DNA of 64,000 bases from Sporopachydermia quercuum (taxonomy: Eukaryota): NCBI GenBank assembly GCA_001599295.1, contig BCGN01000002.1, positions 310,001 through 374,000 on the forward strand. Direction: 5' to 3'. The position numbers were made by a program, and so were the translations under genes. This document shows, one piece after another, positions 3,232 to 58,220 of this stretch. The notes below the pieces were generated by a model, which was not told where the DNA came from, did no database searches, and saw only the letters and a program-made list of their open reading frames with translations. How positions within the stretch are numbered: position 1 is the stretch's first letter; every line of letters starts with the position of its first letter.

Positions 3232-6200
3232 ATGGCATCTGGGAATATCAACAATGGGAACCATTATCAGGCCGCTGATCTGACGAATATTCCAGCATTG
3301 AGTGTTGAAAACTCAAGTGTTATCTCACAATTAGCCTCGGTTTATCACCATAGCAATCCAGTAGCTAAAATATCCAGCAAAGCTCTGGTGAGTATCAACA
3401 CCTTTGCAGGAGTGACCCAAGCACATACTGAGGCATTTAGCCAATTAGCTATCAATGCATATAAAAGATTATTGCAACAAGATGAAGACCAAGCAGTGTT
3501 ATTTCTGGGAGAATCAGGTACCGGGAAATCTCAGTATAAAACGGAGGTAGTCAATTTTTTGCTCTCGCAAGCTAATAATCCTATCTCGGGTAGAATATCT
3601 GACGCTTTAAATGTGTTCTCTGCCTTCACTACTACTAAAACTAATAACGGACTGTTCACATCGCGAGCGGGACAAGTGATTGAACTCCAGTATAGCCAGG
3701 ACTCAACACTAATTGGTGCTAATATTTCAGACTATCGTTTAGAAAGATCGCGAACTAGCAAAGTACCTATTGGAGAAAGAAACTATCATGTCTTTTACTA
3801 CTTATTTGCTGGTCTTTCTCCAACTGAGCGAACCCATTTATGTTTACCAGCTCCTTCAAGCCAGGAACGACTCTGGTATTTAGGCCATCCTTCACAATTG
3901 AATATTACAGGGATTGATGATGCAGAAAAGTTCTACGAGCTGCTGGGAAGCTTCCGGGTTTTGGGCTTTTCTAGAACAGACATAGCTAATATATGTCAAC
4001 TTCTAGCTGCCATTCTTCATATCGGTCAATTGACGTTCAGACCTACTGAGAATTCAGAAACAGGAGCTTTAAGCGAAGTTGTGTTCTATGACCGTTTAGA
4101 ACGTATCTCAAAGTTTTTGGGAGTTCGCACTGAATTGCTAGAAACAGCCTTGAGCTTCAAATCTACTATTGTTCACAGGGAAAGGATTACCAAAGTATTA
4201 GACGTTGATGGTGCCAAACAAAGTGCGGACGACTTGGCACGTTGTTTATATGCATTCCTATTTTCTTGGATTATGGAAAAAATCAATAATAGGATATCTC
4301 AGGATCATTCAACGGGGGATTTTTCTGATATCCACAATGTTTTCACTATTGTTGATTTTCCTGGTTTTACAACTTCGCATACTATCCCAGTGTTGGATAA
4401 GCTATTGCATAACTCTGCCAATGAATATTTTCATAACTTCATGCTTACTACATATTTCCAAGCGTCGGCAGAGTTGCTGGAAACTGAAGAAATCACTGTC
4501 CCGGAGAATGAATATTTTGATAACTCTGATACAGTTACCTCGCTATACAGACCCCAACTAGGACTACTATCAGTAATTGATGATTACTCTCGTCGGGGAA
4601 AAAGCGAGAATTCCTTCTTGGAATCCGTGCGAAGAAGATATGAGAAAAACGAGATTATTAGAGCTCCACATGATGGTTCACGTAATTTTATTATTACACA
4701 TTATGCTGGTGAAGTTGATTATAAAGTAACTAATCTGTTGAGCAATAATATGGAGGCCATATCAGGAGACTTTATTAATCTGTTCACGTCATCATCAACA
4801 TCGGATTTCCTACAAGTGATTTTTTCATCAAAGGCAGTTGTCAGTGATAGTGATGACCAACCGGACTCTGCAGTAAATTCTGGCAGTATTACAAGAATGA
4901 AAAGTGTTAAACTATCATCAAAACCAACTCGACAGCCAACATTGGTAAGGAAAAGTACAGTTAAGCGAAAAGAGAACTCCAATTCCAAAGTGGCCGAATC
5001 GGGTAAGGAAGCCATTACTAGTTCAAACTTAAATCTAAACTCTAATCTTACATTGGAATCAACTCGTTCAGACGCTTGTGTTCAGTTTGCAGAATGTATG
5101 GACGATTTGATCTCTTCTTTGAAGTCTTCGAACGTTTATTTTGCGTTTTGCATAAAGCCTAATGATAGGAAAATCCCCGGGCAGTTTGATGCTCGCTGTG
5201 TAAAACAGCAGGTGATGGCATTCCAGTTACCAGAGATAATAAAACGGGTTCAAACTGTCGATTTCGGTTTATTCTTACCTTTTAGCGAGTTCCTAAAGCT
5301 CGTAAATGAAAACTACGATCCAAACTCCGAGGGTTCACTTAATAATAGCACGGATAATATATCTGAACGGGAAAAAACTATAGCTTTAGTCAAATACCAC
5401 AACTGGTTAGATAGAGACATACGGGTAGGCACTACCGGAGTTGTGCTTTCAGAACCTTTATGGCAATTGATACTTGGATCCTCAAACGCTATTGATATAA
5501 CTAAAATAGCTTTGAAATCAGCTGCTGCCGATAACGACAATGATGCTGATGGTATCGGATATGCTGGTGAGCAAGCTTTTGGTTATGATCCTAACTCTTC
5601 TCTATTGAAGATTACTCCAGGAAGCGATAATGACAATTTGTTTAAATTCACTGACACTAAATCAATATATGGGCCTTCTCTAATGCATTTAAAACATGAC
5701 GATGCTGACCATACAGCACTGGCGGCTGCGGAGGCTGCTAATCAACAGGGCATTCAGACTGTCTCATTCCAGCGGAAATTCTGGCTGGCAATAGTGACAG
5801 CATTAACCTTCTTTATACCAGAAGTTCTTATGAAACATATTGGCAGAATGAAACGGAAAGATGTCCGTGTTGCCTGGAAAGAAAAGCTTGCGATTAACAT
5901 TCTCATATGGCTTTCCTGTGGCATCATGATCGTCTTCCTTATTTTCTTCCCAATCTTAGTATGCCCTAACCAAGATGTGTACTCGCAAGGTGAACTAGCC
6001 GGTTATAGCTTCGGTGCTAACCCCAAAAAGACATACCTAGCTATTCGTGGCACAGTGTTTGATATTACCAAATTTTCTGCTGCCCATTATCCTTCTATAG
6101 TGCCTCAGAGTAGTATTCAGAACTACGGTGGTTCAGACTCCTCCGACTTGTTCCCGATGCAAGTATCTGAATTGTGTCAAGGAACAACCGGAGAAGTCAG

Positions 6201-8727
6201 TAAGTACATTATCATGGGCACTAATACTAAATATCAAGATACCAACGCTCAATATCATGATTTCCGATATTTCACCGGTGACTATAGACCGAATTGGTAT
6301 TCCGATATGATGCTCCGGTTCAATCACAACTATAAAGTAGGCCACATTGGCTATACAGGCTCTGATATTGATGAAAAGCTTGTTGGGGATAATGGGAAAA
6401 TCGTAGCTGTCATCAATGGTAATATATATGATCTTACTATGTATATCAACAACGAATTCTCAACAAGAGCTCCCTCTGGCGAAAAAGTCCCCAATGACGT
6501 TGATCTACAGTTCATGGACTCTTCTCTGATTAGCCTGATACAGACAAATAACGGACAGGATATAACGAGTGCGTATAACAAGCTAAACATGGATTTAGAC
6601 CTGAGAGAAAGAATGAACGTTTGTTTGGACAATCTCTTCTTCATAGGCAAATTAGATACCAGAGACTCTGTCCGATGCCAATTTGCTAGGTATTTCCCTT
6701 TGGCTATATCCTGTTTTTTGGTAACAGTGATTGCATTCAAATTCTTTGCTGCTTTACAGTTCCATAAGGCCTCAGCACCAGAACAATCAGATAAGTTTTT
6801 CATTTGTCAAATCCCTGCTTATACAGAAGACGAGGGATCTCTCCGCAGAGCAATTGACTCTCTGGCATGCTGCAAATACGACGATAGAAGGAAACTACTG
6901 TTTATTGTATGTGACGGTATGATTATTGGTGCTGGAAATGAAAAATCAACGCCAAGAATTGTTTTGGATATTTTGGGAGCTCCTGAGGATGCAGAAATCC
7001 TTAGCGAGCCACTCAGTTTTGAAAGTTTAGGCGAAGGAAGCAAAAGGCATAATAGGGGTAAAATCATCTCCGGCTTATACCAAGTAAACGGCCATATTGT
7101 TCCTTATATTGTATTGATCAAAGTAGGTACCATTGATGAGATCAATAGACCTGGTAACAGAGGTAAAAGAGACTCACAAATGATACTTATGAGGTTCTTC
7201 AACAGAGTTCACTTTGAGCTACCTATGTGTCCTTTAGAGCTAGAGTTGTATCATCATATGCAAAATATCATTGGTGTGGACCCTCATTATTATGAATTTC
7301 TACTTCAAGTTGATGCTGACACTGCTATTGATAAATCAGCAGCAAGCAAAATGATTGCTGCTATGGTTTCCGATACTAAAATCATTGGGTTATGCGGTGA
7401 AACAGAATTGTACAATGCTAAACAAACAATCATTACTATGATTCAAGTGTACGAATATTATATTTCTCATAACTTCACCAAAGCTTTTGAATCATTGTTT
7501 GGTTCTGTCACTTGTTTACCTGGTTGTTTCACCATGTATCGTGTTTATGACGCCTTTGATAGAAAGCCTTTGTTTGTTGCCCATTCAATTATAAGAGCTT
7601 ATCAAGTCAATGAGGTAAACACCCTCCATATGAAAAACTTGCTTCATTTAGGTGAAGATAGATACCTCACAACTATCTTATTAAAACACTTCCCCAGGTT
7701 TAAAACAAAGTATTTACATGATGCTAAATGTAATACTATTGCTCCTGATAATTTCAAAGTTTTTTTATCCCAACGAAGACGATGGATTAATTCTACTGTG
7801 CATAATTTAGTTGAATTAACATCCATCAATCAGTTATGCGGTTTCTGTTGCTTTAGTATGAGATTCATCGTTATTTTGGATCTTGTAAGTACAATTATTC
7901 AACCTGTGATTATTGTTTATTTGGCTTACTTGATTTACCTGATCGCCAGTTCTGATAATGGTGTTCCTGTGACTTCTTTAATAATGATTGCAGCTGTTTA
8001 CGGCTTACAAGCACTGATATTCTTATTGAGAAAGAAATGGGATATGATAGCTTGGATGATCATATATATGATAGCAATACCTATATTTGCTGTCGCTTTA
8101 CCATTATATTCTTTCTGGAATATGGATGATTTCTCTTGGGGTAATACCAGAGTTGTTATGGGTGAGAAAGGCAAGAAAGTAATCCTTGGGTCTGTTGGTG
8201 TGTTTGATCCCGATGAAATTCCTTTATTGAGATGGAGAGAATATGAAAACGAAGGGCTTGGAGGAATAGGAGGAGAAGGAGGTGTGGGAAGAGATTTTGT
8301 TGCAAATGGTACAGGAACTAACACTTATGGACGCTCACCCTCTTTCACATCTCTATCGAATGTTATGGCAAGAAGATCGTTCTATGCTAACAATGATACA
8401 ACATACTCTCAAGGATCATTTTCTAGATCACCTTTCAGCGATTCCAACGCTATAGATAATAATAATTACGATCTCCAATCATTAACTGTTGCTGCCGCTG
8501 CTAGTGCTGTTGGGGGTGCCGGTACAGGGTTTACGCCAGATGTAGCCGCTATCAGTGANAGCGAGATTATACACGAATTGAAGGATATAATTGCTACCAA
8601 TGATTTAATGCAATTAACTAAAAGAAGTATTAGGACTGAGTTAGAAAAACGGTTTGGTGTTTCTTTACAGGCTCGAAAAGAGTTTATTCGATTTGCAGTT
8701 GAGGCTATTTTGAAAGGAGAACTATGA
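3232..8727 (+). CDS. Chitin synthase with N-terminal myosin motor-like domain (class V type), 1831 aa
   Basis: P-loop GESGTGKS and myosin motifs ERNYHVFYYL and DFPGF; cytochrome b5-like region (VFDITKF...HYP); division-2 chitin synthase core (GNRGKRDSQ, QVDADT, LHLGEDRYL, QRRRW, WNMDDFSWG); C-terminal DEK-C-like tail. Confidence 0.96.
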   Translation: MASGNINNGNHYQAADLTNIPALSVENSSVISQLASVYHHSNPVAKISSKALVSINTFAGVTQAHTEAFSQLAINAYKRLLQQDEDQAVLFLGESGTGKSQYKTEVVNFLLSQANNPISGRISDALNVFSAFTTTKTNNGLFTSRAGQVIELQYSQDSTLIGANISDYRLERSRTSKVPIGERNYHVFYYLFAGLSPTERTHLCLPAPSSQERLWYLGHPSQLNITGIDDAEKFYELLGSFRVLGFSRTDIANICQLLAAILHIGQLTFRPTENSETGALSEVVFYDRLERISKFLGVRTELLETALSFKSTIVHRERITKVLDVDGAKQSADDLARCLYAFLFSWIMEKINNRISQDHSTGDFSDIHNVFTIVDFPGFTTSHTIPVLDKLLHNSANEYFHNFMLTTYFQASAELLETEEITVPENEYFDNSDTVTSLYRPQLGLLSVIDDYSRRGKSENSFLESVRRRYEKNEIIRAPHDGSRNFIITHYAGEVDYKVTNLLSNNMEAISGDFINLFTSSSTSDFLQVIFSSKAVVSDSDDQPDSAVNSGSITRMKSVKLSSKPTRQPTLVRKSTVKRKENSNSKVAESGKEAITSSNLNLNSNLTLESTRSDACVQFAECMDDLISSLKSSNVYFAFCIKPNDRKIPGQFDARCVKQQVMAFQLPEIIKRVQTVDFGLFLPFSEFLKLVNENYDPNSEGSLNNSTDNISEREKTIALVKYHNWLDRDIRVGTTGVVLSEPLWQLILGSSNAIDITKIALKSAAADNDNDADGIGYAGEQAFGYDPNSSLLKITPGSDNDNLFKFTDTKSIYGPSLMHLKHDDADHTALAAAEAANQQGIQTVSFQRKFWLAIVTALTFFIPEVLMKHIGRMKRKDVRVAWKEKLAINILIWLSCGIMIVFLIFFPILVCPNQDVYSQGELAGYSFGANPKKTYLAIRGTVFDITKFSAAHYPSIVPQSSIQNYGGSDSSDLFPMQVSELCQGTTGEVSKYIIMGTNTKYQDTNAQYHDFRYFTGDYRPNWYSDMMLRFNHNYKVGHIGYTGSDIDEKLVGDNGKIVAVINGNIYDLTMYINNEFSTRAPSGEKVPNDVDLQFMDSSLISLIQTNNGQDITSAYNKLNMDLDLRERMNVCLDNLFFIGKLDTRDSVRCQFARYFPLAISCFLVTVIAFKFFAALQFHKASAPEQSDKFFICQIPAYTEDEGSLRRAIDSLACCKYDDRRKLLFIVCDGMIIGAGNEKSTPRIVLDILGAPEDAEILSEPLSFESLGEGSKRHNRGKIISGLYQVNGHIVPYIVLIKVGTIDEINRPGNRGKRDSQMILMRFFNRVHFELPMCPLELELYHHMQNIIGVDPHYYEFLLQVDADTAIDKSAASKMIAAMVSDTKIIGLCGETELYNAKQTIITMIQVYEYYISHNFTKAFESLFGSVTCLPGCFTMYRVYDAFDRKPLFVAHSIIRAYQVNEVNTLHMKNLLHLGEDRYLTTILLKHFPRFKTKYLHDAKCNTIAPDNFKVFLSQRRRWINSTVHNLVELTSINQLCGFCCFSMRFIVILDLVSTIIQPVIIVYLAYLIYLIASSDNGVPVTSLIMIAAVYGLQALIFLLRKKWDMIAWMIIYMIAIPIFAVALPLYSFWNMDDFSWGNTRVVMGEKGKKVILGSVGVFDPDEIPLLRWREYENEGLGGIGGEGGVGRDFVANGTGTNTYGRSPSFTSLSNVMARRSFYANNDTTYSQGSFSRSPFSDSNAIDNNNYDLQSLTVAAAASAVGGAGTGFTPDVAAISXSEIIHELKDIIATNDLMQLTKRSIRTELEKRFGVSLQARKEFIRFAVEAILKGEL

Positions 8728-26236: not shown

Positions 26237-28522
26237 ATGAACTACATACCGAGCAACTTCCCAGCAACAGATAGCGGGGATAATCAAGATCGGAAACGAT
26301 CCCGTGAAGATCCTGTGTCTTCCGCCGGTTCCGAATTATTGCGGCCACCTAATAAAATAACCATTCGGCTGAAACCGGATCCTGATTCGTCTTTTCCAAA
26401 CAGTCCAAACGGGATAGCTGGTCTACCGGTTAATCAAGTCAAACAGGGAAATCAGGTGAACCAAGTCAATCGGATATCTGGCGGAACAGTTAACGCGGCA
26501 ACTCACGTCAATAAAGAGAACCAAGTTAATTTGAGCTCCGCAAATGGTTCCGTAATTGGAACAGGATCTGGATCTGGATTTGAATCTGGCTCTAGTCTTA
26601 ATCATGGCGTACCATTACCAAACAGAATTAATTCAAATGAGAGAAAATCTTTATCTGGAAACGCAATAAACTCTGTTTCAAACTCAAGTCCTAATCCCGT
26701 CCTAAAAGCATCTGTCGGAGCTCAAAGAATACCCAAATTTTGCACCTCCGACGAAGACTTCTTCCTCAAATATGCAAATGCCCCTCCCTCTTTAGAGTTC
26801 CACATATATGAAAAACACTACCGGTTCGGCCGCCAAGAAGGGATAATACCCCGCAGTAATCCGATGATCAATCAGTTTCTAGAATATGTTGCGCGGGAGG
26901 AGATTCCGCCGTATATTTCCGAGATTCTTCGGGATTCTGGAATTCGGTATTATGAGGGGTGTTTATTNCTGCATTTGTACGATCATCGGAATACAAATGC
27001 CGGGTCTGAAAATGGGAATGGGCAGAAGCCAGGCAACCTTAATTCAGTTAACTCGGTTAACTCGATTAATGCTCCCAGTGCATCTATGAGCTCTGCTAAC
27101 AACTCCGTTAGCTCGGCTCAATCACCTAATCATGTAGTCAAATCGGCTAAAATGTTCAAAGTCATCCTTCATCCTACCGAATTGGAACAATGGTACGACA
27201 TAATTTCGCTTAGCGACCCTCTTCAGCACAGATTTACCGATGATTTTGCAACCTTTATAACGGCACAAATCACTAATATCACCAAAGTTAAGGTTAATAC
27301 GATTGTACCTTTGAATCCCTATACGGCAAGTACTTATATTCCATTACCCAAACAGGATACCGGACCTAGAAATAGTTCTAATCTTAAACCGGCTCCGAAA
27401 CCTAAGCCTAATACCAACCCTCATTCTCATGCCCATCGGCCCGAATGTCAAGTGAAACGGATAAGAGCCCTCCATGAAGATTTACCCCACAATTCCTCGG
27501 AATACGAAGATTTGATGCTTCTATTAGACGACTCGGCAAACGAACGCTCGGATCAATTGGTTCGGATAAGCTTTATTGAGCAATGGCGACGAAGACGAGA
27601 GAAAATGACGCAAATAGCGTTAGCGCATCAGATGAGCCGAACGCAAGCTGCACGAAAGAAACTTGGCGGGGCTGCAGCGTCATCCTCGGGTTCCGGATCT
27701 GAAATTATGCCTGATCAGCACACTCAAATACAATTGCAACAGCAGATGATGCAACAAGCTCGGCAGAACTTCTCGTTATCAATAAACTCGGTAGCAGCTG
27801 CGGTGGGTGGAAGCAGAAGCGGGGTGGGCGGGGTGAGTGGAAATGATAATAGTGGAGTAAATGGAAAAAGCGGGAGAGTTAACAGTACAAGTGGTAGCAA
27901 TAGCGGAAGCAATAATAATAATAATCTCAACTCAACCGGAATTGGAAACTCGGGCACGGCAAACCTCTCCGAATCGGGTGATATGACCGGGACAAGATCT
28001 CCTAGTATTGCCGGAAATGGCAACATGGCCGGTGGAATGGGGGCAGATTTATCGGAAAAGGAAAAGGAAACAGTGAAGGGTAAAGCTAAAAAGACAGTTA
28101 AGCGAGGGAAAAAAGCTGCTACAGGACCCACTGCTGCGGGTAAAGATGGAACTTTATCTGAAACCGTCGGGGCCGGAACTGCAGCTAAAACGAAACGGAA
28201 GACTAAAAAGCAGAAAGAAGCCGAAATTCGGAATAACTCGGGTAAAACTGTTGCAGGAAAGACTATTCCGGGTAAGACCGTTCCCGGGAAATCGTTACCA
28301 GGGAAGACAGTACCCAGGAAAACAATTCCTGGTGGGGTAAGCGGAGCTGGTATAGCAAAGGCTAAAAAGCCGAAGAAAGAGACAAAGAAACAACGGGAAG
28401 CTCGGTTGAAGAGCGAAGCCGAAGCCGCGGCTAATTTACGTAATGCGCAAGGAGGAATAAGTGGGGTGGCAGGGGTCAATACTCAATTCGGAATGCTAGA
28501 CGGAAGACTGAATGAGATATAA
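26237..28522 (+). CDS. SPT20: SAGA complex subunit Spt20-like protein
   Basis: Spt20 domain motifs LKYANAPPSLEFHIYEKHYRF, IPPYISEILRDSGIRYYEGCL, ILHPT, LHEDLPHNSSEYEDLMLLL; low-complexity flanks; first ATG at 26237. Confidence 0.85.
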   Translation: MNYIPSNFPATDSGDNQDRKRSREDPVSSAGSELLRPPNKITIRLKPDPDSSFPNSPNGIAGLPVNQVKQGNQVNQVNRISGGTVNAATHVNKENQVNLSSANGSVIGTGSGSGFESGSSLNHGVPLPNRINSNERKSLSGNAINSVSNSSPNPVLKASVGAQRIPKFCTSDEDFFLKYANAPPSLEFHIYEKHYRFGRQEGIIPRSNPMINQFLEYVAREEIPPYISEILRDSGIRYYEGCLXLHLYDHRNTNAGSENGNGQKPGNLNSVNSVNSINAPSASMSSANNSVSSAQSPNHVVKSAKMFKVILHPTELEQWYDIISLSDPLQHRFTDDFATFITAQITNITKVKVNTIVPLNPYTASTYIPLPKQDTGPRNSSNLKPAPKPKPNTNPHSHAHRPECQVKRIRALHEDLPHNSSEYEDLMLLLDDSANERSDQLVRISFIEQWRRRREKMTQIALAHQMSRTQAARKKLGGAAASSSGSGSEIMPDQHTQIQLQQQMMQQARQNFSLSINSVAAAVGGSRSGVGGVSGNDNSGVNGKSGRVNSTSGSNSGSNNNNNLNSTGIGNSGTANLSESGDMTGTRSPSIAGNGNMAGGMGADLSEKEKETVKGKAKKTVKRGKKAATGPTAAGKDGTLSETVGAGTAAKTKRKTKKQKEAEIRNNSGKTVAGKTIPGKTVPGKSLPGKTVPRKTIPGGVSGAGIAKAKKPKKETKKQREARLKSEAEAAANLRNAQGGISGVAGVNTQFGMLDGRLNEI
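28241..28330 (+). repeat. Coding 15-bp tandem repeat, six copies of GK(T/S)(V/I/L)(P/A), in the Spt20 tail
   Basis: GKTVA GKTIP GKTVP GKSLP GKTVP RKTIP. Confidence 0.85.
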
Positions 28523-29524
28523 AATGGGGGATAGCATAATAAAATTTGAACCTAGAACCTATTTGGTTAATGTTTTGTATCTTCAACTTTAACTGGATAA
28601 TAATAAGATGTACCGGTTTGGAAAACTGGAATCAACTCAAGTACACGAGAATACAGATTCAGAGAATAATACATCCAAACTTCACATACGAATTTTCCAT
28701 TTGGAAGTATCGGAACACCGGAAAACTTCTCTTTCCGATCCAAGATTCTTACCGCCTTTCTCTGGTGTGGGAAAAGATGGTTTTCACTACTGGAAATGTC
28801 ACCAATACATGCATAATGCTATCGCCACAACCATTGTCAAATACACGATGCTAGACATAACAAGCTCCTTCCGACTATCCTGTAGATTAAATTAAACATA
28901 CGTCATAATCACATCAACAATGAATAATAAGATCAATGATATACTATTTTCATTACTTAATGATAAGAGATGTTGCTCAATTTGTTACTTCTCCAGATCA
29001 TTAAATGTACTCATCAATTCTCCGTTCGGAGCCACAGTCAAATCCTCTACTGCATATGCATATCATCAATGTTTACTACTGCTAGAGGAGCTCTTGTTAC
29101 GTTAACAGCCATTGGTTATTGATCTTGAAAACCCCATCATGGGATTCGATCAGATAATAGTGTTTGGCAGGGTGGTTATTTTGGGAGGAGGGTTAGATTA
29201 CTTATTGGGCCATTCATTGGATCAAGATTATTCAATTTAAAGTATAAGACCAGCTTACGTCAATTTAAGGTGAGACATGAGTTGTCTTTACAGAAATTCA
29301 AGAGTCATCGAGTAAACCCGTCATCACAGTCATTTTCCAACACAGTGATTGATTATTATGGGGAGAGATTTTACTCTCTCAAGCAATACAAGCAGTGGTT
29401 GAGAGACTGTAATGCGTATAGAAGAAAAACCAAGGAGTTTTTCTGAACTTCGAGCATGAGCGTGAAAGGAGTGGGTACCTTTGTAAATATATAAAGGAAT
29501 AAAATTAGCTGAACGAACGCGAAG

Positions 29525-29995
29525 CATAATTTCGTTAGGTGGTCAGGAACTGTTCTAGGAGCATATACAAACACTTCCACTCGTTTAACTGTTATGCCCT
29601 GAAGATCCAAGAGAGAATCAAAAGATTGGAATTGAACAAGAACATCTTCGACATAGGTAACTACATGGAAGCAAAATTCAAGACTTATTTGTTACCCCAC
29701 AATCAAATCACCGCGGATGTTAGAGGTATTAGAGGATTCTGGTCCAGTGAGTTTACTGAATCCAAGGAAACGTTAGCCCCTTTTGATCCTAAGATCAAGG
29801 TTGCTTTGAGAGTTCAGAAAAAGTGTGCTGTCAAAGGGTTGACGCTTATGGCTGATAGCTGATGTACGGGAGAAAAGGTGATCACATCTTATTGGCACCG
29901 TCGTTCATCATTACCAAAGAAGATGTGGATAAGCCATTGCCACCAAGACCATTGATCAGATTACTGGAGATTTAATTGCTGAGGGTCTTTTATGA
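29525..29995 (+). pseudogene. 3' fragment of a class-III PLP-dependent aminotransferase, frameshifted
   Basis: Across several frames: SGTVLGAYT / HSFNCYALKIQERIK...NIFDIGNYM...ADVRGIRGFWSSEF...TLAPFDP...KGLTLM / GRKGDHILLAPSFIITKEDVD / IATKTIDQ...*; no recognisable 5' part. Confidence 0.75.
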
Positions 29996-31308
29996 TAAAT
30001 GTTATTTACATGAAATTAACGTTATACTAATGGTCTTATTACCTAGGGTTTGTATTGAATAAACTCCCTGTTATATTTGCCAAGTGTTACTGTCTCCTGA
30101 GTTTCTTCTCCTGAGTTTTTTCCTTTTGGTCAGCCAGCACTTCCGTTCGGTTACACGCACGGTTTGGAATGGAAAACCAACAATAAAGCATCTCTCAATT
30201 CGTCTTCATTTAACATTTGTTGTAATTCTTCTGTGGTTTCAGCAATTCTATCTCTATCGTTAGAATCGATCATGAAATCAATGCACTGAGTGTTTGGCAG
30301 TAGTACCTCCATAAAGATCTAATTTTATCTTGTCTACCGACACCCAAACAGTGAAGGAGATCTTGTAAATTTTCTTTTTTATGATTTGTTTATACGATAA
30401 TTTTTAATGCAAAAGAAAAAAAAAAAAGAAAAAAAACAGAAAAGCACACAGAAAGCGATCCAACTAATGTTCCATCAATTCGCTTGTATAAAATTTTGTT
30501 ACTTAAACCAACCATAATTCTTGATTACAATCAATCGATTGTAACGTCAAAATCGATTAGTGAATCAACAAGAAGAAGAAAATTACCAAATGAGTGTTGT
30601 TATTTTACCAGTGACCAAAATAATTGTTTCAGAAAATCCGAATTTGGCTTGGTCATGATTTTGGTTAGTTTTTGCTCCAGGGAAACGAAGCTATGTATAC
30701 GATTTCTGCGACGCCACATAGCGACAAGAATAGGGGAGAGAATTATATGAAATAAGAGCAAAATATGGAGACAAAAGGGAAATAGAGAGAAAGGAAACGA
30801 GATAAAGAAATTAGAGAAGTAGAGACTAAAAAGGTTGATTGTCAGTAAGCCTGGATAGGGATAGTAATTAAGTTGTATTGTTGGGAGTTTGAAATAAGTA
30901 GTTTCAGGTGTACTTAGAATGAAGAAGTGTATGAACTGATTGACAAGTGAATGATTATATAATTGTTAGAATTATTGTAGGAGTGCCTAGAATGTTTTAG
31001 TAAGTGCTTAAAACGAGTATATAATAAATGAGTATAATTGTTACAATCCTGCAGCATCGTTTGTTAAGGTAATACTTTGCGCATTCCATATGAAGACCCT
31101 TCAATGGTCGATATTGCCGATGAGTTAGACATTTATATCCATGGAATTACATTACGTGCAATTAAGCTATATGTAATTGGGTTGTATGAACGTTACTTAT
31201 AGGGACTCCGCCGCTTAATTGTGGGAACCTGGAACAGCCCTAAAAAAAATAAGGAAGCACGATCAGCAGCAGCAAACCAGACGAGTAGTAGGAAAATAAG
31301 CTACTGTA

Positions 31309-31372
31309 ATTTAGATGCGAAGGTTTTCTTCGATCTTGGCGCCAAGATCGAAGAAAACCTTCGCGTCTAAAT
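31309..31372. repeat. 64-nt loopless palindrome (32-bp arms, one mismatch; central 48 nt perfect)
   Basis: atttagatgcgaaggttttcttcgatcttggc|gccaagatcgaagaaaaccttcgcgtctaaat, centre at 31340/31341. Confidence 0.97.
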
Positions 31373-31388
31373 ATGGACCTAATTACAG

Positions 31389-31396
31389 TATATAAG
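31389..31396 (+). promoter_or_regulatory. Probable TATA box of the downstream surface-protein gene
   Basis: TATATAAG 100 nt upstream of ATG 31489, followed by a CT-rich leader. Confidence 0.55.
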
Positions 31397-31488
31397 CACA
31401 GTGCGAGAAGCTCCCGTGGAACTTTCTCATACTTTCTCGTTCTCTCATGCCTGTCTCTTATAGTCATTCTCATTCTCTAATTTTCAAG

Positions 31489-32364
31489 ATGAAGCACCTT
31501 ATTTTCCTACTACTCGTCTGGTTTGCTGCTGCTGCTGCTGCTGCTGCTGATTATGCTCCGTACAGAGGTCCGAAAGTATGGTCAGGAGCATCGTGTACTA
31601 CTGATGCAAGTGTGTTCCAAACGCTCAAAGTACATTATTATGACACAGGTGGCGACGCAGACGTGGGAAACATCATGAGCGAGGACCACCCTGTGGGTAA
31701 TACCATTCTCAAGCAGGTCAAATCTTGGGGTGGTTTCAATGGTAGGTGTGGTCAATTCATAGGGTGGTCTGACATCGAAGACCAGGAAGGGTATAGATGG
31801 TTTGTGCATATTCGACAGGGATATCAGTACCTCGATTCTTTCGATGACCCTGACGAACAGTGCTACTTTGACAACTACTTCTGCGACAACCTTGGTGCGC
31901 TGCAAGTGTTCGGTGTCATCCGAGAATACAACATAGTGGGTGCTTGTGTGCAATTGCACATCAACCACCAGACCACCAATTTCTTCTTTGCTAGAAAAGA
32001 TGCTTATGAGGATGCCAAAAATGATCTTTACATTCGTACTGAAAACTGGGATTTAACTAGAGCCAGTGGGTATGACTGTCGGAATGCTATTGCTTTAGCC
32101 GGAGTGCCTCTCGTTAACTTACCCAGTGAAAACGGCGGTGTCCAGCCCTTCACCGTCAATCTCGGGGACTCCCCATCGCTGACAGATGGATCGGGTATTC
32201 CCTCCATATCAGATTCTCTCTCTACCAGCTACATAGATGAAGCTAGTGAATCTACCACCAGTTACATAGATGAAGCTAGTGAATCTACCACCAGTTATAT
32301 AGATGAAGCTAGTGAATCTACCACCAGTTACATAGATGAAGCTAGTGAATCTACCACCAGTTAA
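31489..32364 (+). CDS. Orphan secreted/cell-surface protein: signal peptide, Cys-containing domain, Ser/Thr repeat stalk. Truncated by TAA; the frame continues to a GPI-type tail ending at 32565
   Basis: MKHLIFLLLVWFAAAAAAAD signal; 6 Cys in the domain; YIDEASESTTS repeats; after TAA 32362-32364 the frame reads on to SGNEAGELVSLSKWLQLFACIMSLVI*. Confidence 0.85.
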   Translation: MKHLIFLLLVWFAAAAAAAADYAPYRGPKVWSGASCTTDASVFQTLKVHYYDTGGDADVGNIMSEDHPVGNTILKQVKSWGGFNGRCGQFIGWSDIEDQEGYRWFVHIRQGYQYLDSFDDPDEQCYFDNYFCDNLGALQVFGVIREYNIVGACVQLHINHQTTNFFFARKDAYEDAKNDLYIRTENWDLTRASGYDCRNAIALAGVPLVNLPSENGGVQPFTVNLGDSPSLTDGSGIPSISDSLSTSYIDEASESTTSYIDEASESTTSYIDEASESTTSYIDEASESTTS

Positions 32365-32481
32365 ATAGATGAAGCTAGTGAATCTACCACCAGTTACATA
32401 GATGAAGCTAGTGAATCTACCACCAGTTACATAGATGAAGCTAGTGAATCTACCACCAGTTACATATATGAAGCTACTGAA
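32230..32481 (+). repeat. 33-bp coding minisatellite, 7 full copies plus a partial eighth
   Basis: Unit tacatagatgaagctagtgaatctaccaccagt; copy 3 starts TAT, copy 5 starts TAA. Confidence 0.97.
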
Positions 32482-34235
32482 CCTAGCGGTAATGAAGCTG
32501 GTGAACTTGTTTCCTTATCCAAGTGGTTACAGCTTTTTGCTTGTATAATGAGCTTGGTAATCTAAGATAAGCTGGCTGCAAAAAAAAAAAAAAAATTAAA
32601 GGGAGATTTCTCACTATTGCTCTATAACCCTCTATGCTTATTTGATCCTATCCTTTTCAGCATTATTATTCGCACTACTGCTAGAATAAGCGTGTGGCAA
32701 GACCACTACTTTCGGTTTGAGTAGAATGTAAGCTTGAATCGGCTGAGCTGGTACAGGTTGAACTGAACTGAGTTGTTTCGAAGGTATGAACTGTTGAGCA
32801 AGGAATTCAGCTTGAGGGATAATTAGGNTTTTGAGTCTTCGTGGAATAGCTGGTTTGCAGTTTAGTAGCAACCATACTACTGTGGTTCCTACCCGCCTGC
32901 CCACCAGAAGACTCAAATCCAAACTTCGTAGGTTAGAGCAGAGCTGTTAGAACAGTGATATAGGTGGTAAGAAGAGCCGGTTTGTCACCGGTAAACGGTC
33001 ATCTAAGCTGAAGATCCAATTTGCTATTGGTATGAATGAAATGAACATATATTATATTCCATTCGGTATTGATGAAAATTTCAGTGAAAGCAGCAATTCT
33101 ATTTCAAGTAATCTTTTTTTTTTTTGAATAAATCTATGAGCATAAAAATTAATAAGAGATGGTGTATGATGTAAAACAGTTCATGGGAGAGCATTCGTCA
33201 AAAGTTCCAATATGGTGCTTTCTTTGCGGAGAGATCTAAGTGAACTGATACTTCAAATACAGCTTGTTTGTATTTCACTAGATTTTTCAGTCACCATTGT
33301 ACTAAAATGGGATAATCTGAAGAATAACTAACTGTAAACAACTTCTTTTTGGTTTAGCGTCCTCTGGTAGTTGAAACTGCAAGAACTGAAGGAGTACAGT
33401 TACCCCCATTACTCAAATGATCGGGTCCACAATATACCTCCCAAGTGTATAGTATCTTTGTTTTTGTTATCGGCTCAACTACATCGAGCCAGAATTTAGG
33501 CTGCGAAAATGGTTCCCAAACAAAAATTATACCGAATAGAGGTGGTATAACTGCAGGGATCACAGCTTCAGAAAGTATAGATCACCCCAAAAATATTAAG
33601 GAAAAGCATGGTAATCAATTGCTAGCAAAGAAATCTATAATAACCAGTACCAGGATAATAGTTAGAACAGTTGTGAAGTTTAAAACTTGGTGAGAATTGC
33701 AAGATAACCTTGTAACTGCCAGCTTGTTCTCTCGGACAAGTTTTGGCATGTGAAACAACAATCGAGTATATACCCCTTTAGTTTTGCTGATTCATCCTTT
33801 ACTGAACATTCACTAATGCTTGAAAACGATAGACTCTGTTCAAGACTTTGTATGCTGTACGCAGGTGATCAGAATTCTTACTGTACTCACCTTATTATCT
33901 TTTTGATAGCTTTATAACATAAAACTTCTGCATGAAAAAAAGATCACCAATAAACCAGCTAAAATAAAGGACCCTCTCTCATTCGAAAGCTACCTTCCAC
34001 CTTATATCCTTTCTTCATTTCTATGTTGCCGATTTCCGACCACAACAGCAGTTCAAAAGTGTTCATGTACCCTCAATTTACATGAATCTTATCTAGCATA
34101 ACATTTTCCTACTCCATTCGGTGAAACGCTCACAAAAATATATAAATAAATCCCAATCATACCTTGTAGATATACATTAAGTACCGTCGAACACATTCTT
34201 TCTTAGTTTACTATATTTAATCAACATTCACTCTG

Positions 34236-36088: not shown

Positions 36089-36769
36089 CTAGGCATTATC
36101 TTTATCCTTTTTCAGTTCACTCGGAAGTAATAAATCAGGTGGATCATTTACTATCAAATACTCCAAAAGCTCTCGCACAGGCTCTCTATCCTTTTCATCA
36201 AACAACCAGAGCCCATATGTCTTACCAGCAACACTTTTCACCAGTAATATCTCATCGCTCAAACTAACCTCCATAGTATTCAAGCCATTGGCTTCTGTAA
36301 CTGTGTTAGGACTCACTCCTAAACAAAAATTTTCTGGTGATAGTCTATTGAACACTATTATACCGTAGGCATATGGATCTTTGTATGGAGAGAACTTCAG
36401 TTGCTCTTCTTCGATTTCTTTTTGCCTTTTTTCTTCTTTTTCTTCGTCTTCATCAGCGTATACGCTGAATACGTCTTCATCATATCCGCCAATATTTGAT
36501 GGTACCGATAGTTGGAAATAACGTGAATATACTATCATCACACCTTGTGGTTGAAGTTTTTTCCACTCATCTGCTGATTCGTTGAACTCGTAAAGAACGC
36601 AATGAGACGCGGTGTAATATATCTCTTTCAGTTTAGGGTCATACCTGTGGAGAACACGATAGTTTAATGCTTGTCGATATACTTCGAATACTTGATCTTG
36701 CGATAGTTGAGGTTGAGGCTGCTGTGCTTCAGGTACTGTTTCCGTTGTGTCTTGTATCGAAGGTGCCAT
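36089..36769 (-). CDS. DCP1: mRNA decapping subunit Dcp1 (EVH1 fold), 226 aa
   Basis: ALNYRVLHRYDP...TASHCVLYEF...EWKK...YGIIVFNRLSPENF...YGLWLF. Confidence 0.93.
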   Translation of the reverse strand: MAPSIQDTTETVPEAQQPQPQLSQDQVFEVYRQALNYRVLHRYDPKLKEIYYTASHCVLYEFNESADEWKKLQPQGVMIVYSRYFQLSVPSNIGGYDEDVFSVYADEDEEKEEKRQKEIEEEQLKFSPYKDPYAYGIIVFNRLSPENFCLGVSPNTVTEANGLNTMEVSLSDEILLVKSVAGKTYGLWLFDEKDREPVRELLEYLIVNDPPDLLLPSELKKDKDNA

Positions 36770-46751: not shown

Positions 46752-47249
46752 ATGTTTTATTTTCCCATAGTTCTTATCTCTGCTTTCCTTTTGGGGTCAG
46801 CGTTTGCTGAGGCATCAGAACCTGCGGTTCTTACTGACACCCAGTCTTTTGCTGCTGCTGGAACTGTGTCTGTTCTATCATTGCTGACTGCGTTGAATAC
46901 TGTCCCAACTGCTTTGAGTAGTAATGACAATACTGATGAAACTAATAACGAAATACAGACATCGGAATCAAGCCCTCTATTAGAAAGTGCAAACAGCGTG
47001 ATAACTCTTCATGGTTTAGAAGGGCCATTTATCACATCAAGCCAACCTATAAACAGTACTAATATCACTGTTACTTCATATCAAGAAACTGGTACCACAT
47101 TGGAAACGTTGGTGTCTTCTACATCGTCAACTGGTTTTAGTCAGACGGTGAACAATGCAACAACTCATGAGGGAGGAGCTGCAAGCTCTAAAGACAGATC
47201 TACGGGAGCTTATATGTTATGTTTTGGGTTGATGGCATTCTTGATATAA
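46752..47249 (+). CDS. Small Ser/Thr-rich putative GPI-anchored cell-wall protein, 165 aa
   Basis: Signal peptide MFYFPIVLISAFLLGSAFA; S/T-rich body; C-terminal GGA...AYMLCFGLMAFLI. Confidence 0.75.
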   Translation: MFYFPIVLISAFLLGSAFAEASEPAVLTDTQSFAAAGTVSVLSLLTALNTVPTALSSNDNTDETNNEIQTSESSPLLESANSVITLHGLEGPFITSSQPINSTNITVTSYQETGTTLETLVSSTSSTGFSQTVNNATTHEGGAASSKDRSTGAYMLCFGLMAFLI

Positions 47250-56433: not shown

Positions 56434-58220
56434 TTATAATTCTGCAGAGAAGTCAATAACCTCACAAGATAAATCAGCCAAGTTCACCAGCACCAATTGT
56501 TTATGAGTTTTAAACTCAGGAAGACAAATAAGCCTGGAGTATATCATATCACCATCTGGTGACTTTTCAATAAGAAGTTTAGTCTCAAACTGTGGCTGGT
56601 TCCCAGCAAAAAGTACATGCGGTGTTTCGGTTATAATGAAAGGATCAGAGTCTTTAAATGGATAACACCAAAGGGTATCAGGAGCCGTTGGGAATAAATG
56701 TTGAAGCAGTAGCGTGTCCTCTAGTATTTTCAAATGAGAGATCGAGTCATTGGCTTTTGTTTCGACATCAAACTCTGCTTTAGGAAGATTCAATTCACTT
56801 CTTATTTTATCTTCAGGTAAAAGATACTTAGCCATATCATTGACATTTTGACCACCTGTACCTAAAGCTCTTATTCCTTCAAAATCGTACCAGGTAGGAT
56901 TATCTTCCAGATGTAATAACCCTTGTTGAAGATTTGATAAGTTAATATATTTTCGGGATAATGGAAGAAGAGAATGGTGAATTGCCTGCTGCGGAACAGA
57001 AAAGGAGGTCGGATCTGTAGCACCAGGCATAACAGATACCGTAATAGATGGAAGAATATCTGCAAGAAATTGATCAAATTGTTGAATAGAAGCTGGCGTA
57101 CCAGAAAGATTAGCTGTAGCTTGACGATTACTTAAATCGACTTTGTCTACTTCATTGAAATACTCTGGAGATACTGAATTGCCAGCTATTATTAACTTAA
57201 TGATCTGTGAAGCTTTTACCCTATCAGACAACCCACCTAACACCCCCGTTAAAAACTCTTTCATCAGTTCAATCTCTAACCCAAAATCTTCAGTACTACC
57301 AAATTGAAGGCCAGAAACTAAGGCCACGTATTTTGGCTTGTTCGTTTCTTTATCAATGCCTCTAGAAGGGATGGGATCACCATCATTACTTAGCTCTTTT
57401 CTGACGGCACTTTCTTGACTATCCATCATTTCTAAATCCAACAGAACATCATTTTTGAGTACATCAGTCAAATCAGGTAATGCAACTTGTGGTGGTAAAT
57501 CTGGAACACATATATCTAGGATTTGAAATTTACCAGGCTCAAGCTCAATGCCAAATACTGCAACTACAGCACCCGTGACAAGTTGAACATTCATTTGGTT
57601 AAGCTTTTCTAGACCACTTAATTCCACTCTTCCACTTTCATCTTCAATAGTAATAACATCTGAAGCATCATTATATGCATAATGAACCGGAGGAGGGGCT
57701 CCCCATTGCTGCCTACCTAACTCTTCAAAGATATCAGGTTTATATTTCATTTCATAGTAAATAGTACCAACAATCCAGCACGGTTTATTGTTTGTGATGT
57801 CAAGCACTTTTTCTACGTATTCAGCATTTTGTTCTTTTATAACTTTTTCCCATTTAATCTTTGCTGTTTCAACAAGTTTCTTCCGTAACTTTGTTAACCG
57901 GATAAAATATATGTTAGCATATTGTTGATTATAAGATCTGTCACGCAGTTTAACTGAATATTCCTCTTTCCATTGATCTATGCTTTTAAAATTCGCATTA
58001 TCTGGAGTAACCGGAGAATCTTCCACTTGACACCTCACTGGATTTCCTAATTCTTTTTCAACCCTTGAATATATTTGTTAATATTCATACAATTATTCGA
58101 TTATCTGAATTTACCCATTTATTGAAGATTACCCAAGAAACAAAAGGTAACTCACGGTTTATCAAGATAACTGTCAAAGCTATCCGATCGACTTTGACTC
58201 AAAGAAACGTCTGGCATCAT
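56434..58220 (-). CDS. POL31: DNA polymerase delta small (B) subunit, 2 exons (58220-58156, 58063-56434), 564 aa
   Basis: QYANIYFIRL, EDESGR, LIIAGNS, MPGATDP...PQQ, PTAPDTLWCYPF...DPF...PHV.FAGNQ; GTGAGT...TATTAAC...AAG intron supplies the ATG. Confidence 0.92.

Follow-up and report, generated by a model that had tools for sequence, protein, structure and literature searches.

The 64,000-nt stretch of DNA analysed here (the window, to whose positions all coordinates refer) comes from the budding yeast Sporopachydermia quercuum and carries, on its plus strand, a gene of 291 codons whose product begins with a signal peptide. Immediately upstream of the TATA box of this gene lies a palindrome that has no equal elsewhere in the window. 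A preliminary description of the region had reported a 64-nt palindrome without a spacer, a 10-nt inverted pair just outside it and a TATA box directly downstream, and all three are found in the DNA as described. The palindrome occupies 31309-31372, with arms of 32 nt that differ at a single position, where 31316 is paired with 31365, and its GC content of 42% is similar to that of its surroundings. The two members of the outer pair are 100% complementary, and the pair overlaps the left arm of the palindrome by 3 nt. The TATA box, which lies 16 nt past the end of the right arm, is the sole match to TATAWAWR on the plus strand between 30800 and 31500. The features on which the argument turns are the following:

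31302-31311 and 31381-31390: outer inverted pair, 10 nt each
31309-31340: left arm of the core palindrome, 31 of its 32 positions being complementary; read as an inverted copy of 31341-31372
31317-31364: perfect palindromic core, 48 nt, with its axis at 31340/31341 and the centre CTTGGC/GCCAAG
31341-31372, plus strand: right arm of the core palindrome, read as native upstream promoter sequence and contiguous with the TATA box and coding sequence
31389-31396, plus strand: TATA box TATATAAG, with the start codon 100 nt downstream of it
31489-32364, plus strand: gene of 291 codons, encoding a signal peptide with a poly-alanine run, a cysteine-containing domain and a region of 33-nt tandem repeats

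Chance is excluded as the origin of the palindrome, because the runner-up among the spacerless palindromes of the 64 kb reaches an arm of only 12 nt when one mismatch is allowed, the longest such arm in 100 first-order Markov simulations was 15 nt, and none of 100 shuffles gave any match to the 24-nt arm pattern, whose matches in the window are the two arms only. Furthermore, a search for inverted repeats 24 nt or longer whose arms lie within 400 nt of each other gives just two in the window, and both are found here on one common axis, the second pairing 31256-31305 with 31493-31542. Treated as single-stranded DNA, the 301-nt stretch 31250-31550 folds as one long hairpin at -86.4 kcal/mol, compared with -32.3 +/- 4.3 kcal/mol for its shuffles (z -12.7; 0 of 100 as good), and the 64-nt core is computed at -31.7 kcal/mol. 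Perfect spacerless arms, the sequence property of the cruciform class, are present in the 48-nt core, from which a cruciform could be extruded or hairpins could arise as the DNA is replicated, extrusion itself being predicted only.

A larger inverted duplication on the same axis

The palindrome is the best-kept core of a larger, decayed inverted duplication centred on the axis 31340/31341. The extent of the duplication was mapped by reverse-complementing the left flank and aligning it with the right one. The right side, 31341-31557, comprises the native upstream region, the TATA box, the 5' untranslated region (5'UTR), the start codon and signal-peptide codons, and the left side, 31256-31340 (85 nt), is the reverse complement of the right side with gaps. 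Blocks of matching sequence run in the same order outward from the axis on both sides:

Block A: left 31340→31309, right 31341-31372; 31 of 32 positions identical
First gap: 31373-31383, plus strand, 11 nt present on the right side only and flanked by the near-repeat CTAAAT / CTAAT
Block B: left 31308→31302 (7 nt), right (the original) 31384-31390, plus strand; 7 of 7 identical, within the outer 10-nt pair
Second gap: 31391-31497, plus strand, 107 nt present on the right side only; the left side has the single base 31301 instead
Block C, left: 31264-31300, minus strand, inverted signal-peptide codons 4-16, of which the last three units are GCT; 37 of 37 identical
Block C, original: 31498-31534, plus strand, inside the coding sequence (signal peptide)
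Third gap: five more GCT units, on the right side only
Block D: left 31263→31256, right 31550-31557, just after the GCT run; 6 of 8 identical, a doubtful outer end
31524-31549, plus strand: TGC/GCT triplet repeat of 8.7 units, coding for the poly-alanine stretch of the signal peptide

Blocks A to C differ at 1 position in 76 aligned nt. The coding character of block C is evident from tblastn, which matches residues 4-15 of the protein to minus-strand positions 31300..31265 with 100% identity. The 107-nt segment present on the right side only contains most of the TATA box, the 5'UTR, the ATG (31489) and codons 2-3. At its outer end, the homology stops at, or no more than 8 nt from, the triplet repeat (boundary range 31256-31274), and left of 31256 neither blastn (word size 7) nor tblastn finds any likeness to the gene. 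Repeat searches of the window found no third, direct copy of the duplicated segment. The triplet repeat has three GCT units in the inverted copy and 8.7 in the gene, so that its length changed after or during the duplication.

The right arm is the original and the left arm the copy, because the right arm is uninterrupted with an open reading frame (ORF) that can be aligned, at its N-terminus, with the signal peptide of a homologue from another yeast. As the left arm is an inverted copy of the gene's own upstream sequence and codons, the event copied a gene that was already present. The preliminary description had offered, among several options, the scar of a fold-back insertion that brought the gene in; the first half of this proposal agrees with what is found, an inverted copy of the gene's 5' end, and the second half does not, as the copy was made from the gene and did not deliver it. 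Neither a TATA box nor a start codon in the matching frame is present in the left arm, which encodes nothing. A minus-strand ORF of 77 codons at the left arm was considered and rejected as spurious, since it lies in a different frame from the block C match.

Fold-back copying as a candidate origin

The palindrome is probably the axis of a young, partial inverted duplication left by fold-back (snap-back) copying at a broken end. An insert produced in this way is the reverse complement of the sequence that adjoins it, and such an insert is found here, with 31/32, 7/7 and 37/37 matching positions in successive blocks. The event is recent, as indicated by the single difference in the 76 nt of blocks A to C. 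Only the outcome can be read from the DNA, and the steps that would have led to it are reconstructed from that outcome. A double-strand break or a collapsed replication fork just upstream of the promoter would have started the process, after which the 3' single strand of the gene-side end would have paired with itself, possibly at a short natural palindrome in the position of the present centre, CTTGGCGCCAAG. A polymerase would then have copied the strand's own sequence outward, reaching the signal-peptide codons, and the new strand would have been unwound and joined to the other broken end. The internal gaps might reflect template jumps during synthesis of low processivity or, alternatively, later deletions that trimmed a perfect palindrome of roughly 430 bp, which in yeast would be strongly unstable (PMC8053094, in part). 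The 11-nt gap, lying between CTAAAT and CTAAT, looks like a slip.

Laboratory yeast is where fold-back copying at broken ends was elucidated, and the process has been invoked for palindromic amplifications in tumours. At HO breaks in Saccharomyces cerevisiae, local fold-back inversions range from 2 to ~150 bp, most being 5-34 bp, and are formed when one end serves as its own primer and template and then captures the second end through 0-5 bp of microhomology (excerpts of PMC11724301). As at the present locus, where the left arm measures 85 nt, the events described in those excerpts insert an inverted copy of break-adjacent sequence and thereby lengthen an inverted repeat. They differ in having been seen in amplicons after an induced HO cut and in retaining a 41-nt spacer (PMC11724301), whereas the S. 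quercuum structure is a natural and apparently fixed allele that is spacerless, has two internal gaps and reaches the coding sequence. Further work in yeast, as far as the available part of PMC10622511 describes it, places fold-back priming at natural inverted repeats of 3-15 bp after resection and attributes to Pol delta proofreading the conversion of imperfect repeats into a perfect palindromic centre. The hairpin-capped fold-back inversions of the same source are chromosome-scale, pass through dicentric intermediates and are frequent only without Mre11-Sae2, unlike the present case, in which chromosome order is undisturbed and 85 nt were added. In Drosophila, the snap-back form of synthesis-dependent microhomology-mediated end joining proceeds by formation of a hairpin in a resected strand, short synthesis, unwinding and annealing of the nascent DNA to the other end, according to portions of PMC5728401. 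There, too, the insert ends up within a longer inverted repeat, although the inserts are typically a few nt long and the organism is a different one.

The present centre can also be set against what has been reported of palindromes in yeast. Hairpin or cruciform formation and attack by Mre11-Sae2 are likeliest where a perfect centre lacks a spacer, as stated in excerpts of PMC8053094 and PMC7999016, where the arms of the engineered palindromes measure 320 bp to 2.7 kb, compared with a perfect half-core of 24 nt here. A census of inverted repeats in S. cerevisiae notes, in the part available, that lengths susceptible to cruciform extrusion exist but that 'none is perfect' (PMC2908449), and the long natural palindromes of yeast are described as highly AT-rich (PMC7999016, in part). 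Unlike those natural repeats, the S. quercuum core is perfect over 48 nt with 42% GC. The core would be free of AT-richness because its source was ordinary promoter DNA, which was copied, and not an expansion of AT repeats. A threshold of ~70 bp for palindrome-induced recombination in S. cerevisiae was reportedly set by Lisnic et al. in 2009, and no argument is drawn from it here.

Several points weigh against fold-back copying as the source of the structure. The axis has no spacer, while experimental fold-back products keep one (6, 35 or 41 nt), and a self-complementary seed therefore has to be assumed. Such a seed, resembling the present central 12-mer, would conceal the missing spacer, and the centre CTTGGCGCCAAG could itself be that seed. 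The copy is also long: it measures 85 nt now, and its template would measure 217 nt if the gaps are later deletions, in comparison with the 5-34 bp of most experimental events. The 107-nt gap, replaced by 1 nt, is not accompanied by clear microhomology. The ancestral state without the left arm is deduced from the present sequence. Finally, none of the contig records of the sequencing runs discussed below extends at least 31 letters to either side of the axis, and their depth is only a rough measure.

If the duplication did arise by fold-back copying, the structure can be regarded as a natural, fixed counterpart of laboratory fold-back insertions, the mechanism itself being already known. A literature search, which was not exhaustive, gave no natural yeast example of fold-back copying among its top-ranked results, and fixed natural products that still display their history are seldom pointed out. 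The scar appears to be fixed in a wild, early-branching budding yeast, and it retains together an axis, blocks in the order in which they were copied, a pair of internal gaps and a terminus at a triplet repeat. The locus is thus a possible natural test case for the reach of fold-back synthesis, for template jumping and for the survival of a 48-nt perfect palindrome that is not AT-rich in a wild genome. The structure is regarded as a neutral or mildly harmful scar. It also offers a caution for annotators, who should not take every conspicuous palindrome next to a TATA box for a regulatory element. Because the mechanism is already known, the practical weight of the case is modest.

Competing explanations

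One alternative shares much with fold-back copying and differs from it in scale. A far larger head-to-head duplication, taking in the whole gene or more and produced, for example, at a hairpin-capped chromosome end or by sister fusion, would have the same inverted-duplication geometry and the same spacerless axis, provided that its left copy was afterwards deleted down to 85 nt. Long perfect palindromes are strongly unstable in yeast, so that rapid trimming would be expected (PMC8053094, in the excerpt available), and the region upstream of the palindrome is strewn with gene relics. Such a history is nevertheless unlikely. It requires at least three deletions, all of them in one arm, with the axis staying perfect throughout; the DNA left of 31256 has no gene likeness at the nucleotide or protein level; and the near identity of the surviving blocks allows little time for trimming. 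This alternative is in effect a variant of the fold-back idea, and the two are inseparable without relatives.

A second alternative gives the palindrome a function, as a selected cis-regulatory promoter element that acts from its position 16 nt upstream of the TATA box, either as a supercoil-sensitive cruciform switch or as a site for a multimeric factor. The palindrome does stand directly upstream of the only TATA consensus, and the hairpin or cruciform predicted for its 64-nt core is very stable (-31.7 kcal/mol). Furthermore, transcription near the centre of a palindrome is reported to favour cruciform events in yeast, in the excerpt of PMC8053094. Selection for a regulatory role is distinctly improbable all the same, as the symmetry runs on into coding sequence, where a regulatory site would not need it, and the palindrome is far longer than factor sites. 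The promoter of the gene's only homologue has neither a comparable repeat nor sequence similarity, and the premature stop in the gene speaks against strong selection at the locus. The preliminary description had raised a dimeric factor site in particular; this suggestion found no support, given that 64 nt is too large for such a site, that the structure enters the coding sequence and that nothing alike is present at the homologue's promoter. Palindromic factor sites are, moreover, of another order, the symmetry here extending over 64 nt and then on to 85 nt (left side) and 217 nt (right side), with a motif that does not recur in the window. A related and still more far-fetched idea is that the scar may have come to serve as an on/off switch for a cell-surface gene, by way of a supercoil-driven cruciform beside the TATA box that alters the firing of the promoter, or of a long hairpin RNA, produced by transcription entering from upstream, that silences or throttles the gene; were this true, a single repair accident at a surface-protein locus would have yielded a reversible on/off device.

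Hairpin RNA has also to be considered independently of any switch. A transcript entering from upstream of 31256 would contain perfect stems of 32 bp and 37 bp, and its left arm would pair with the 5' region of the messenger RNA, feeding a pathway of the RNA interference type or blocking translation. The folding of the 301-nt stretch into one long hairpin agrees with this, as do, after a fashion, the Rfam matches at the locus, which are to generic hairpin models and fall below threshold (mir-548, 47.1 bits against 90; CopA, 26.1 bits against 60). At the gathering score, Rfam gave no match across the whole 64-kb window. The left arm is itself situated upstream of the TATA box, and the idea calls for read-in transcription. 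A role for the inverted copy in RNA is extremely improbable.

Palindromes are a classic product of chimeric libraries, and an artefact of assembly or library preparation, such as a fold-back chimera, had to be weighed for that reason. The preliminary description had named presence in independent reads as a check, and this was carried out at the level of contigs from three public runs, which belong to two studies and at most two samples, any of which may be the source strain. The contigs come from a k=31 graph and provide support at the level of 31-letter words, not long reads, and their depth is a rough measure that does not equal copy number. All three runs carry the structure with 0 differing letters, and their contigs over 30800-32150 have no alternative junctions and no loose ends. 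Each run contributes a 37-nt record (block C), a 76-nt record (31271-31346), a core record (48 nt in two of the three runs, 39 nt in the third) and a 193-nt record (31335-31516), neighbouring records overlapping by 30 nt, as is inevitable when a palindrome is assembled with k=31. The core record is ~1.9 times as deep as its unique neighbours (38.1 versus 20.5/20.6; 166.1 versus 86.7/87.9; 43.3 versus 22.1/24.8), a ratio that fits two copies per genome, these being the two arms, with no further copy elsewhere. The depths of the records resemble those of the flanking genome, and the depth of the gene body equals that of its flanks. The one-base asymmetry between 31316 and 31365 is reproduced in each run together with the differing flanks, so that an artefact confined to one library is very unlikely. 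No long read was seen, and none of the records passes the 31-letter rule for bridging the axis; an artefact of any kind is nonetheless largely refuted already and is hardly credible. Heterozygosity, in which one allele would lack the insert, was considered separately and rejected: no alternative junction or contig was reported, and a lower depth of the unique records in one run (X1) is absent from the other two (X2 and X3).

The same depths bear on the proposal that the palindrome is the end of a mobile or hairpin-ended element, the scar of a hairpin-ended insertion being among the options of the preliminary description. On this account a fold-back transposon, a transposable element of the miniature inverted-repeat type (MITE), a linear plasmid or a viral end carried the gene in, and the gene is indeed patchily distributed, with one homologue among 1.84 billion cluster representatives, and has the highest GC content at third codon positions (GC3) of the 13 ORFs in the window. 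The gap in GC3 is small, 0.443 against 0.428 for the next ORF, and neither the patchy distribution nor the slightly raised GC3 involves the palindrome. The right arm consists of promoter and coding sequence that belong to the gene itself, the depths fit two copies only and oppose further copies of the arm, and there are no direct, terminal or target-site repeats flanking the gene. The terminal inverted repeats, target-site duplication and multiple copies that mark fold-back transposons and MITEs are all wanting, as far as the flanks of the gene and the contig depths show. The 24-nt arm has no exact match in viral contigs, and a blastn search of plasmids with 31240-31560 found nothing. Delivery by a mobile element accordingly has next to no likelihood, and fold-back copying of a resident gene is preferred to it.

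Three further processes can be set aside briefly. A chromosome-scale fold-back inversion, or an amplification of the origin-dependent inverted-repeat type (ODIRA), does not fit a duplication of only 85 nt and a gene-body depth equal to that of the flank; center-break resolution of a palindrome does not fit a centre that is intact; and hairpin opening after transposase-type cleavage leaves palindromic 'P' additions, which are only a few nt long and too short to account for the structure, with no element present.

The gene, its homologue and the genomic setting

The gene ends at a TAA codon (32362-32364) that lies inside the array of 33-nt repeats, at a position where the other units read TAC. 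Beyond it, the frame stays open for 66 codons, to 32565, and the predicted tail resembles that of the homologue, which tblastn aligns across the TAA as far as 32550:

32365-32565, plus strand: in-frame continuation past the TAA, with three more repeat units and a hydrophobic C-terminal tail

This arrangement suggests that a surface-anchored protein was recently truncated, either to a secreted form or on the way towards a pseudogene. The locus of the gene is variable in other respects than the palindrome, through its triplet repeat, its array of 33-nt repeats and the stop codon within that array.

The preliminary description had called the gene an orphan, which proves slightly too strict, since HMMER, run exhaustively against 1.84 billion cluster representatives, found exactly one relative, a protein of 342 residues with 42% identity from Candida (Sungouiella) intermedia. 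A profile search of 6242 candidates revealed no relative beyond this homologue, and a word-indexed search matched the gene's protein to none of 6759 candidates. The protein contains no Pfam family, its matches in a PDB sequence search are at chance level, the ESM Atlas gave no usable match, and its AlphaFold model has a mean pLDDT (predicted local distance difference test score) of 47.3, too poor to use. The homologue's gene is located at 1742-2770 of its locus (L001), whose upstream region has no comparable inverted repeat, the best being 22 nt at 73%, and a comparison of that locus with the window found no promoter similarity and no synteny. Transfer between yeasts and massive loss are both possible as sources of the gene's patchy distribution.

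That no close relative of this genome is present in the protein databases is apparent from a housekeeping protein, DNA polymerase delta subunit B (56434-57750), because its best matches, in Nadsonia, Pachysolen, Lipomyces, Blastobotrys and Geotrichum, reach only 35-38% identity. The palindrome and its gene are found between SPT20 and DCP1, in a region that also contains partial genes and relics:

26237-28522, plus strand: SPT20, upstream of the palindrome
29129-29446: PAM17-like piece, Pfam Pam17 with an E value of 4e-27, covering profile positions 86-164 of 165 only
29539-29862, plus strand: relic of a class-III aminotransferase, its last ~80 residues, matching gamma-aminobutyric acid (GABA) transaminase in the PDB with an E value of 9e-6
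30151-30403, minus strand: frameshifted relic of the ARF family, Pfam Arf with E values of 2.5e-11 and 0.0037 in different frames
36089-36769, minus strand: DCP1, downstream of the gene

The N-terminal part of the Pam17 protein must sit in another frame or across an intron (28896-29446). Between the ARF relic and the palindrome, 30906-31047 is a degenerate tandem duplication of ~73-75 nt, represented by direct-repeat pairs D4, D5, D7 and D8 with spacings of 62-75 nt. Nine single N bases are scattered over the window (8559, 12915, 26071, 26968, 32828, 38942, 53069, 55999 and 62953), several of them inside ORFs, and may mark ambiguous or heterozygous positions of the assembly. An ORF of 165 codons at 46752-47249, with a signal-like N-terminus, a serine/threonine-rich body, a hydrophobic C-terminus and no Pfam family, may encode another surface protein, and an ORF of 1831 codons at 3232-8727 combines a myosin motor head, a cytochrome b5-like domain, chitin synthase and a DEK C-terminal domain.

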